Shown here piece after piece: positions 4,756 to 14,514 of a stretch of DNA of 14,514 nt. Source of the DNA: a virus. Lineage: Duplodnaviria; Heunggongvirae; Uroviricota; Caudoviricetes. The stretch lies in IMG/VR virus record IMGVR_UViG_2660238462_000002. One strand, written 5' to 3'. The position numbers were made by a program, and so were the translations under genes. The notes beneath the pieces were generated by a model that saw only the letters and a program-made list of their open reading frames with translations, searched no databases and had not been told where the DNA came from. Position 1 is the stretch's first letter. Each line of letters begins with the position of its first letter.

Positions 4756-4808
4756 GGGCGGCAGAGCAGTCACGGAGTAAAACTGATACCGCCAAACGTC
4801 ACCAGAAA
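4756..4808 (-). ncRNA. dicF: DicF-like small regulatory RNA (about 53 nt) with intrinsic terminator hairpin and U-tract
   Basis: Minus-strand sequence TTTCTGGTGACGTTTGGCGGTATCAGTTTTACTCCGTGACTGCTCTGCCGCCC followed by TTTTT matches recalled DicF. The 3' hairpin GGGCGGCAGAGCAG/CTGCTCTGCCGCCC is followed by the U-run at plus 4751-4755. Context is between ydfC-like and dicB-like genes, as in Qin. Confidence 0.7.
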
Positions 4809-9376: not shown

Positions 9377-9469
9377 TTAAATTTAGCTCTGTTAAAAATT
9401 TAATCCTTAACCGGAGGGATTTCTGCACCCTCAGAACATCAGGAGGCCGCCCGAAAGGGCGGTAGTTAA

Positions 9470-9652
9470 ATGCGAAAGTTTAAAATAATTATTGAAACGG
9501 GAATAGCCGGTGGAGATTTCGAGGATGAATTCGAAGTGGATGATGATGCGACGCCTGATGAAATACATGACGAAGCAAAAGATATTTTCTTTAACTACTG
9601 CAATTACTCATATCACGAAATAAAAGACGAAGAGGAAGAACAAAATGGCTGA
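9470..9652 (+). CDS. Small highly acidic protein (60 aa, about 20 Asp/Glu against 5 Lys/Arg)
   Basis: ORF in an AT-rich segment; AGGAGG at 9441-9446 is separated from the ATG by a GC hairpin (9447-9462). Net charge about -15. Confidence 0.5.
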   Translation: MRKFKIIIETGIAGGDFEDEFEVDDDATPDEIHDEAKDIFFNYCNYSYHEIKDEEEEQNG

Positions 9653-9821
9653 TTTTGGTTCAACTAAATACAACGTCAGTTTTGAAGAATGGCATGAACT
9701 GTTAATGGACTATGCAGAGTTACGTGGTGGCAGTGCTGCTGATGCTGAAGCATGGCGTGATGATTATGAAGCAGGAAAAACTCCGGTCGAAGCATATTGT
9801 GATGAGTGGGGCGATGAATGA
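9645..9821 (+). CDS. Small acidic protein (58 aa), overlapping the upstream gene (ATGGCTGA)
   Basis: Hand-translated: MADFGSTKYNVSFEEWHELLMDYAELRGGSAADAEAWRDDYEAGKTPVEAYCDEWGDE. About 16 acidic against 4 basic residues. Start overlaps the stop of the 60-aa gene and its stop overlaps the next ATG (ATGA). Confidence 0.5.
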   Translation: MADFGSTKYNVSFEEWHELLMDYAELRGGSAADAEAWRDDYEAGKTPVEAYCDEWGDE

Positions 9822-10075
9822 GCGAGGTTAATTATCAGGAAGGGCATGAAACGGCGGGGCAAGCAAAAACAGTGGCATGGCGATATCGCTACGTGAAAAA
9901 AAAGGCGTTACGGACTTTCAGGGGAAGTAGTGGTCTGGTGACTGGAAATATGTACCGAAAAAAGAGGATTGTAACGACAGGCCGAACTATGAAATTCAGG
10001 CCTTATTCACTGCCCCGCCAGTCCCGGTTACATCAGAAGAACTGGTTAAAGCTGTGCACTTTTATGAACAACTAA
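9818..10075 (+). pseudogene. Possible disrupted or frameshift-dependent ORF; the protein-like C-terminal part is in the -1 frame, ending at 10134
   Basis: The frame from ATG 9818 looks protein-like at first, then turns basic and low-complexity. The -1 frame from 9930 to 10134 reads as good protein (WSGDWKYVPKKEDCNDRPNYEIQALFTAPPVPVTSEELVKAVHFYEQLKRENPPASGNLITDSQIRQ) but has no start codon. Two A_AAA_AAG heptamers lie in the 0 frame at 9898-9904 and 9958-9964. Confidence 0.3.
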
Positions 10076-10304
10076 AACGCGAAAATCCACCAGCATCCGG
10101 AAACCTGATTACAGATTCCCAGATAAGGCAATGAGCTACCTGGCGCAGAACGGGCTGATAAGTATGGGGAATGTTTTACGATGAATATTTAGACTAAAGA
10201 GTTTGTAACGCTATGTAAGTGATTTTTTCTGGTTTAGATATTTATATGTCCGGCCAAATTGAGGTGTGTTTAAATGTAATTGCACATTGATTGTAGGAGG
10301 AATA

Positions 10305-10484
10305 ATGAAAAACGCATTGCAGTTTTTGTTTGTTGCGTTCTGGTTGTTCGTATCATGTATGCCCATCATCTTCACAGCAAGGTATATGGAAAAAGTTGAT
10401 GTTTTGATATTAATATTTGGATATATAAATGCCCTTTTTTTAGGGGTGTTCATGGCGGTCATGTGCATTGAATACTGGCGGTAA
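10305..10484 (+). CDS. Small hydrophobic membrane protein (59 aa, two predicted transmembrane segments) in an AT-rich cassette
   Basis: AGGAGG 4 nt upstream of ATG 10305. Sequence MKNALQFLFVAFWLFVSCMPIIF...ILIFGYINALFLGVFMAVMCI. Local composition is much more AT-rich than its surroundings. Confidence 0.5.
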   Translation: MKNALQFLFVAFWLFVSCMPIIFTARYMEKVDVLILIFGYINALFLGVFMAVMCIEYWR

Positions 10485-10686
10485 ATACAGCGAACGCCAT
10501 TGGTTTAGTTGGATATTTACTGTGCCGGACAAAAACGGTTTGCGGGGAAATCTTAGTTAAGTAGAATGACTGCGGGTGCTTGAGGCTATCTGTCTCAGGC
10601 ATGAACACCAAAAGGCAGATAGAGAAAAGCCCCAGTTAACATTACGCGTCCTGCAAGACGCTTAACATTAATCTGAGGCCATATCT

Positions 10687-10746
10687 ATGCGACACATAGA
10701 GATTAGCCTCTTACGGACCGAAAGGTCAAGGAGAAGCAGGCTATGA
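10687..10746 (+). CDS. Short leader ORF (19 codons) ending at the hok start codon; possible mok-like coupling ORF
   Basis: ATG 10687 with GAGG 9 nt upstream; its TGA stop overlaps the hok ATG (ATGA). Canonical mok is longer and overlaps hok, so this is tentative. Confidence 0.3.
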   Translation: MRHIEISLLRTERSRRSRL

Positions 10747-10898
10747 AGCAGCAAAAGGCGATGTTAATCGCCCTGATCGTCATCTGTTTAACCGTCATAG
10801 TGACGGCACTGGTAACGAGGAAAGACCTCTGCGAGGTACGAATCCGAACCGGCCAGACGGAGGTCGCTGTCTTCACAGCTTACGAACCTGAGGAGTAA
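10743..10898 (+). CDS. hok: Hok/Gef-family type I toxin (51 aa)
   Basis: MKQQKAMLIALIVICLTVIVTALVTRKDLCEVRIRTGQTEVAVFTAYEPEE has the Hok/Gef family signature (transmembrane helix, then RKDLCEV...TEVAVFTAYE) and appears identical or nearly so to HokD/RelF as I recall it. Absent from the ORF track because it is under 60 aa. Confidence 0.85.
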   Translation: MKQQKAMLIALIVICLTVIVTALVTRKDLCEVRIRTGQTEVAVFTAYEPEE

Positions 10899-12461: not shown

Positions 12462-12471
12462 NNNNNNNNNN
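12462..12471. other. Run of 10 ambiguous bases (N): assembly gap or masked sequence
   Basis: Seen directly in the sequence. It separates the prophage Q fragment from the asnB 3' flank. Confidence 0.99.
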
Positions 12472-12849: not shown

Positions 12850-14514
12850 TTACTTATACGCCGACTGGTGAACACCAACCGCGCGACCAGACGGATCGTC
12901 CATTTTCTTGAACGCTTCATCCCATTCGATCGCTTTAGCGGAAGAACAAGCGACGGAAGGACCGCCCGGCACGCACTCAGCGGCGCTCGGAAGCGGGAAT
13001 AGTTCTTCAAAGATCTCCCGATACAAGTACGCTTCTTTAGAGGTTGGCGTGTTGTACGGGAAGCGGAAGCGGGCAGTTTCCAGTTGCTGATCAGAAACCT
13101 GCTGCGCAGCCACTTCTTTCAGGGTGTCGATCCAACTGTAACCGACGCCATCGGAGAACTGCTCTTTCTGCCGCCAGGCCACGCTTGCAGGCAGATACGC
13201 TTCAAAACATTCACGCAGGATGTGTTTTTCCATTTTGCCGTTACCGCACATTTTATCCTGTGGGTTAATACGCATCGCCACATCAAGGAATTTTTTGTCG
13301 AGGAACGGAACGCGTGCTTCCACGCCCCAGGCTGACATCGCTTTGTTGGCACGCGCGCAGTCATACATATGCAGGGCCAGCAGTTTACGCACCGTCTCTT
13401 CATGCAGTTCTTTGGCATTCGGTGCTTTGTGGAAGTAAAGATAACCGCCGAACACTTCATCAGAACCTTCACCGGACAGCACCATTTTAATGCCCATCGC
13501 CTTGATCTTACGCGACATTAAATACATCGGTGTTGAAGCGCGAATAGTGGTCACATCATAAGTTTCGATGTGGTAAATCACGTCGCGGATGGCATCCAGA
13601 CCTTCCTGTACAGTGAAGTGAATTTCGTGATGCACCGTGCCCAGATGGTTTGCCACTTCCTGGGCTGCTTTCAGATCCGGTGAACCCGGCAGACCTACAG
13701 CAAAGGAGTGTAACTGCGGCCACCAGGCTTCAGAGCGTTCCTGATCTTCCACGCGACGGGCTGCGTATTTCTTGGTGATAGCGGAAATAATTGAGGAATC
13801 CAGACCACCAGAAAGCAGCACACCGTAAGGCACATCAGACATCAGATGGCTTTTAACTGAATCTTCCAGTGCCTGACGCAGCTCGTTTTTGTCGGTCACG
13901 TTATCTTTCACCGCATCGTAGTCGAACCAGTCGCGATGATAGTAAGAACGGATTTCGCCGTCCTGGCTCCACAAATAGCTCCCCGCCGGGAACTCTTTAA
14001 TCGTGCGGCAAACTGGCACCAGCGCTTTCATTTCTGAGGCCACATACAGCTGACCGTGTTCGTCATACCCCATATACAGTGGGATGATCCCCAGATGGTC
14101 GCGACCAATCAGGTAGGCATCTTTTTCGCTGTCGTACAGTGCAAAGGCAAACATGCCCTGCAAGTCGTCGAGAAATTCCGGCCCTTTTTCCTGATACAGC
14201 GCGAGGATCACTTCACAGTCAGACCCGGTCTGGAACTGGTAACGATCGCCATATTCGGCGCGCAATGCCTGGTGGTTGTAGATTTCACCGTTTACCGCCA
14301 GTACGTGGGTTTTTTGTTGGTTGTAGAGAGGTTGCGCCCCCGCGTTAACGTCAACAATTGACAGACGTTCGTGGGCGAGAATGGCGTTATCGCTGGCATA
14401 AATACCGGACCAGTCCGGGCCACGATGACGCATCAGGCGTGACAGCTCGAGGGCTTTCTTACGCAGCTCAACTGCGTCTGTTTTGATATCGAATACGCCA
14501 AAAATTGAACACAT
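12850..14514 (-). CDS. asnB: Asparagine synthetase B (glutamine-hydrolysing), complete 554 aa
   Basis: N-terminal MCSIFGV (class II amidotransferase with Cys2), SGGLDSS PP-loop motif, full-length enterobacterial AsnB sequence. Start codon is at the last three bases of the window. Confidence 0.97.
   Translation of the reverse strand: MCSIFGVFDIKTDAVELRKKALELSRLMRHRGPDWSGIYASDNAILAHERLSIVDVNAGAQPLYNQQKTHVLAVNGEIYNHQALRAEYGDRYQFQTGSDCEVILALYQEKGPEFLDDLQGMFAFALYDSEKDAYLIGRDHLGIIPLYMGYDEHGQLYVASEMKALVPVCRTIKEFPAGSYLWSQDGEIRSYYHRDWFDYDAVKDNVTDKNELRQALEDSVKSHLMSDVPYGVLLSGGLDSSIISAITKKYAARRVEDQERSEAWWPQLHSFAVGLPGSPDLKAAQEVANHLGTVHHEIHFTVQEGLDAIRDVIYHIETYDVTTIRASTPMYLMSRKIKAMGIKMVLSGEGSDEVFGGYLYFHKAPNAKELHEETVRKLLALHMYDCARANKAMSAWGVEARVPFLDKKFLDVAMRINPQDKMCGNGKMEKHILRECFEAYLPASVAWRQKEQFSDGVGYSWIDTLKEVAAQQVSDQQLETARFRFPYNTPTSKEAYLYREIFEELFPLPSAAECVPGGPSVACSSAKAIEWDEAFKKMDDPSGRAVGVHQSAYK

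Follow-up and report, generated by a model that had tools for sequence, protein, structure and literature searches.

The segment from 9818 to 10184 of the window, by which we mean the whole stretch of 14,514 nt of viral DNA analysed here, is with a probability of about 0.95 the decayed copy of a small accessory gene from the early region of a lambdoid prophage, belonging to the phrog_660 family and 171 aa long when intact, and involves no functional recoding. As a pseudogene it is ordinary, and it was already known from RefSeq annotation; to that call we add which lesions it carries, the likely order in which they arose and their frequency in the population. The two A_AAA_AAG heptamers of the locus are, judging from comparison with intact alleles, by-products.

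Results

Direct reading of the sequence gives an 85-aa open reading frame whose ATG (9818-9820) overlaps the stop codon TGA (9819-9821) of an upstream 58-aa ORF (Table 1). An earlier reading of the sequence alone had noted two in-frame A_AAA_AAG heptamers behind this ATG and a protein-like 58-residue tail in the -1 frame, and had proposed either a programmed -1 frameshift or a gene recently broken at a homopolymer and a TAG. Both heptamers were found where it had placed them and in the 0-frame register, one within an A8 run and the other within an A6 run (9958-9963). The tail was likewise confirmed and proved homologous to real proteins; after the second site the -1 frame reads KKEDCNDRPNYEIQALFTAPPVPVTSEELVKAVHFYEQLKRENPPASGNLITDSQIRQ, 58 residues including two Lys, and this protein-like frame is open from 9931 to the TGA at 10132-10134. 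The TAG had been put at 9927-9929, one base from its actual position, and lies in the -1 frame.

Table 1. Positions in the window of the decayed locus, its lesions and neighbouring features
Feature	Position	Strand	Basis or remark
DicF sRNA	4756-4807	-	76.7 bits; early-left region
Upstream 58-aa gene, phrog_519	9645..9821	+	intact; its TGA shares ATGA with ATG 9818
Full ancestral gene relic, phrog_660 family	9818..10184	+	DNA alignment with intact alleles
Pseudogene per PGAP	9818..10134	+	RefSeq records 100% identical over window 9400-10300
Frame-0 ORF, 85 aa	9818..10075	+	sequence read directly
Lesion 1, A8 homopolymer	9896..9903	+	intact alleles GTG AAA AAA GGC/GAC or GTG AAA AAA AGC
Heptamer 1, A_AAA_AAG	9898-9904	+	within the A8 run
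Lesion 2, TAG, a stop in the ancestral (-1) frame	9928..9930	+	intact alleles CAG (Gln), CCG (Pro), CTG (Leu)
Heptamer 2, A_AAA_AAG	9958..9964	+	ancestral frame CCG AAA AAA GAG (Pro-Lys-Lys-Glu)
Lesions 3 and 4, deletion junctions against 171-aa alleles	10088..10101	+	alignment
Remnant of the ancestral C-terminus, KPDYRFPDKAMSYLAQNGLISMGNVLR and stop	10101..10184	+	+1 frame; aligns to P0018 residues 145-171
Overlapping ORF	10211-10468	-	named 'hornerin' in phage record ON470612
Hydrophobic ORF, 65 aa	10287-10484	+	GGAGG 6 nt upstream
sok antisense RNA	10574-10745	+	Rfam, 106.7 bits
hokD toxin gene	10743-10898	+	just 3' of the pseudogene
Run of 10 N	12462-12471		scaffold gap or masked stretch
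asnB	12850-14514	-	chromosomal

The window is the early region of a lambdoid E. coli prophage. Its genes include those for integrase, excisionase, exonuclease, dicB with DicF, repressor with cro, and ydaT; further genes are a replication gene, DUF977, DUF7167, the 58-aa ORF, the decayed locus, sok/hokD and DUF968. Between the locus and sok lie a strongly hydrophobic 65-aa ORF, which has no PGAP annotation and no Pfam or PHROG match, and a minus-strand ORF overlapping it whose 'hornerin' label looks spurious. To the left of the N run is prophage DNA, in which the DUF968 gene ends and the one after it begins, and to its right is chromosomal asnB; given the 10 N, the adjacency of prophage and asnB is not a demonstrated biological junction. 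Owing to the same gap, a search with the whole window returned no complete genome in which it is contiguous, the best match being 83%. A segment of a record from an unexpected host, PP818812.1 11349-12041 ('Actinobacillus phage vB_Apl-pPE4'), has 92% nucleotide identity with the E. coli prophage segment.

Many RefSeq chromosomes share the 901 bases around the locus at 100% identity, and in these PGAP labels the equivalent of 9818..10134 'hypothetical protein; frameshifted; internal stop'. An example is MS6198_RS31675 (NZ_CP015834.1), locus 9919..10235, which has the same sequence as the window copy and corresponds to it coordinate for coordinate, without difference. The same flag is found in another record with the A8 run and the TAG, and in alleles with A6 and A7 runs.

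As a query for homologues we used a conceptual repair of the gene, in which translation changes from frame 0 to the -1 frame at the first A-run and the internal stop is read as Gln. A protein collection search gave 317 homologous proteins, all from E. coli or Shigella prophages, and the reconstructed product was 74-92% identical to E. coli prophage proteins. Among the PHROGs its sole match was phrog_660 (E 6.5e-27); scanned against Pfam and NCBIfam, neither this product nor the intact proteins matched any family. In the intact homologues one and the same frame passes through both A-rich sites and reads AWRYRYVKKGVTDFQGKQWSGDWKYVP(T/K)KEDCNDRPNYEIQALF. Those of 171 aa (P0018, on 87 contigs), 119 aa (P0011) and 104 aa (P0003) occupy the same syntenic position as the window copy with a continuous reading frame, and the order DUF7167, 58-aa ORF, phrog_660 gene, hok/sok is common to the window and the homologues. 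The family is a mosaic of modules, some members being fused to Ead/Ea22-like or DUF551 sequences. For the intact 171-aa homologue AlphaFold2 gave a model of low overall quality (mean pLDDT 57.9), whose only confident part was a beta module at residues ~20-62 (pLDDT ~86). Foldseek comparison of this model with the PDB returned nothing at E < 0.5, and comparison with BFVD returned only weak matches to uncharacterised phage proteins, namely Ead/Ea22-like proteins, N15 gp45 and phi1026b gp42. A literature search yielded general papers on frameshifting and none on this prophage gene.

The sequence-only reading had asked for an alignment with intact prophage homologues to locate the ancestral frame. 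Over the 20 codons between the heptamers the -1 frame is identical to P0005 at 18 of 20 positions and the 0 frame at 3 of 20; past the second site the 0-frame continuation, which is indeed basic and of low complexity as that reading had described it, matches the homologue at 3 of 36. From the first A-run on, the ancestral protein was therefore encoded in what is now the -1 frame. The fusion of the N-terminal part to the tail by a shift at the second site, as suggested earlier, would take in 20 junk codons; the break itself lies at the first A-run.

Lesions were called from DNA alignments with intact alleles at the same syntenic position, and four separate the window copy from intact phrog_660 members. 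At a Lys-Lys run the window copy has A8 instead of A6, and the two additional A's put the ancestral frame at -1 with respect to the ATG; eight codons past this run that frame meets the TAG, so that the claim of a gene broken at a homopolymer and a TAG is correct, in agreement with the PGAP call. The alignments also revealed two deletions that were not visible to a reader of the sequence alone: one of 90 nt, in frame, between the ENPP and DNP(P/L) repeats (~10091|10092), and one of 61 nt, which shifts the frame (~10097-10100|10101) and for that reason brings in the premature TGA at 10132-10134. The lengths agree, since 516 nt in the intact gene less 365 nt in the window copy leaves 151, the sum of 90 and 61. 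Beyond the second deletion the last 27 ancestral codons persist in a third frame with the same stop as intact P0018, so that the relic extends from the ATG as far as the ancestral TGA at 10182-10184, with its ancestral frame split over three frames.

Neither heptamer was found in register in the intact homologues examined. The first was made by the A insertion and is absent from intact alleles; the second reads as A_AAA_AAG in the shifted frame only, and the sequenced intact alleles have CCG ACA AAA GAG at this place. The AAAAAAG motif occurs 6 times on both strands of the window, against 5.0 +/- 2.3 expected from dinucleotide-preserving shuffles, which is no excess. Candidate -1 sites are judged by conservation of the motif, a Shine-Dalgarno-like (SD-like) element 6-17 nt upstream and a hairpin downstream (PMC4066793), and the stimulators looked for were such an element ~6-17 nt before the site, a stable fold (hairpin or pseudoknot) ~5-9 nt after it, or both. 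GGAG, GAGG and AGGA were absent from the 20 nt upstream of the sites (TGGCGATATCGCTACGTGAA and GTGACTGGAAATATGTACCG), and folds downstream of them were no better than those of shuffled sequences (z -0.14 to -1.82), the sole hairpin starting 14 nt after the second site (dG -8.7 kcal/mol, z -1.8).

We surveyed 5,426 complete E. coli genomes. A 95-mer with the A8 run and the TAG was matched exactly in 353 records and the 54-mer with the TAG between the A-runs in 925, while the CAG version of the same 54-mer was matched exactly in none. The 1,221 matching records were sampled evenly to 60 rows, and one member per identity class was fetched and genotyped. Sister classes had A8 and TAG with one SNP (11 of 60 rows; L008), A7 and TAG (3 of 60; L009), A6 and TAG (22 of 60; L010), A6 and TAG with the second A-run cut to A5 (2 of 60; L011) and A6 and TAG with extra SNPs (2 of 60; L012). 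The TAG was thus present in every sampled A6, A7 and A8 allele, going by one genotyped record per class. The A6 alleles with the TAG keep more 3' sequence, yet they have acquired a second TAG and a 4-nt deletion, so that the sister alleles carry different further lesions: A-runs of six, seven or eight, the second TAG, the 4-nt deletion, the A5 run at the second site, and an extra T in L007. Within the TAG lineage crude Nei-Gojobori estimates of pN/pS were 0.5-2.6, against 0.2-0.4 where intact alleles entered the comparison; with 1-13 substitutions per class, this contrast is only suggestive. Since all sampled A6, A7 and A8 alleles carry the TAG and no sequence-matched CAG allele was found, the TAG appears, on these allele sequences, to be the older lesion and fixed in the allele lineage, with the A-run growing afterwards. 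The gene was broken, as first suggested, but the accompanying word 'recently' is doubtful in view of the 925 exact matches and of the TAG in alleles of all three run lengths.

Some related alleles have been altered in ways of their own. L007 (1501-1818, encoding P0001) is the window copy with one extra T just past the TAG, which together with the A8 run restores the frame after 12 codons out of frame and bypasses the TAG, and in P0053 the frame is regained ~30 codons later; gene callers give these two 'compensated' alleles as intact 105-aa proteins. The intact 104-aa allele P0003 (L003, 1501-1815) looks recombinant, its 5' third resembling the 171-aa alleles in that it lacks the TAG and has GTG AAA AAA AGC at the first site, and its 3' part resembling the window, both deletions included. 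In E. coli RM14721 (L010, A6 and TAG) the adjoining DUF7167 gene (1-177) is also flagged 'internal stop', which suggests that in this genome the whole prophage segment is decaying.

Discussion

The alleles suggest a course of decay in which the TAG would have killed the gene first and the A-run would then have grown by slipped-strand mispairing. Coupling to the 58-aa ORF through the ATGA overlap probably still brings ribosomes to the dead ORF, and translation would now yield the 85-aa out-of-frame product alone, which has no homologues. A spontaneous -1 slip at the first heptamer would end at the TAG after 8 codons, and one at the second would give a chimera in which residues 30-49 are junk, scrambling the sole confidently folded module of the intact homologue. 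Low-level, unprogrammed -1 products may be made at A_AAA_AAG. The possibility that the widespread dead allele is a weakly expressed recoded variant of phrog_660, in which slippage makes a little chimera of the 0-frame N-terminus and the conserved C-terminal helical module that is biologically used, seems to us very unlikely; the commonness of A8 with TAG would follow just as well if a single prophage lineage had been inherited and had spread. Phase variation, with the A-run as a contingency locus, was considered and rejected, the TAG being still present in every sampled A6, A7 and A8 allele.

A dnaX-type programmed -1 frameshift at 9958-9964 would join the N-terminal 47 codons to the 58-residue tail and make a functional 105-aa protein beside the 85-aa product. 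The heptamer is identical to that of E. coli dnaX and in the same 0-frame register, in the presence of stimulators it ranks with the most slippery heptamers of E. coli (PMC4066793), and the tail it would add is homologous to real proteins. Nevertheless, dnaX has an SD-like element before its heptamer and a stem-loop after it, whereas the window site has neither an SD-like element nor a close stable hairpin, and, unlike that of dnaX, the heptamer is not conserved in homologues, its trans-frame product does not correspond to the conserved protein, and it stands within a pseudogene. The 20 codons before the site are homologous in the -1 frame only, so that the fusion would put junk inside the folded module, and the length of the A-run varies among near-identical alleles. 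With the motif count at chance besides, a programmed shift is unsupported and we hold it to be extremely improbable. Equally improbable is a rescue at the A8 run, through transcriptional slippage or a -1 slip of the ribosome, that restores the ancestral frame and leaves the gene partly functional. Long A runs promote polymerase slippage, and the frame break lies exactly at the A8 run, which also forms an A_AAA_AAG; the restored frame, however, meets the TAG, a lesion apparently older than the A8 run itself, and if the TAG were passed, the C-terminal third would still be missing or out of frame through the 61-nt deletion.

The lesions could also be questioned as data, or the new frame taken for a gene. 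If the A-run were an error of sequencing or assembly and the gene really intact in the organism, one would expect the differences of 1-2 nt that are indeed seen between otherwise near-identical records, and long-read error could underlie some of this variation, for example part of the A7 class; but the 353 records with the identical 95-mer are independent complete genomes, and a TAG substitution and two deletions are not homopolymer artefacts, which leaves this explanation a negligible chance. Hardly any credence can be given, either, to the view that the frameshift has given rise to a new functional gene in the shape of the 85-aa frame-0 ORF. Its start is good and coupled to the gene before it, and at least 1000 contigs have it deposited as a hypothetical protein, but past residue 29 its only homologues are identical copies, the frame is lost in the A6 and A7 sister alleles, the product is basic and of low complexity, and PGAP prefers the pseudogene call. 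Deposits of this ORF include ALV68717.1 and UniRef A0A3W4Z061_ECOLX, and one member of the cluster, on a 465-nt contig labelled Bacillus halotolerans, is probably contamination.

Decay of a prophage gene thus remains the reading that we adopt. Frameshift lesions in the poly(A) tracts of decaying genes can be tolerated or partly rescued by polymerase slippage (PMC5009743), and the present frame break resembles them in being an expanded A-run of Lys codons; it differs in that rescue is blocked by the downstream nonsense codon and the deletions. The 85-aa out-of-frame ORF, still deposited as a "hypothetical protein", pollutes protein databases. More generally, a dnaX-type heptamer that stands in register before a protein-like -1 frame is no evidence of recoding unless the motif is conserved in intact homologues, and here one of the heptamers arose from the inactivating insertion itself. 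For the biology of the prophage the finding carries little weight, being the routine decay of a non-essential accessory gene.
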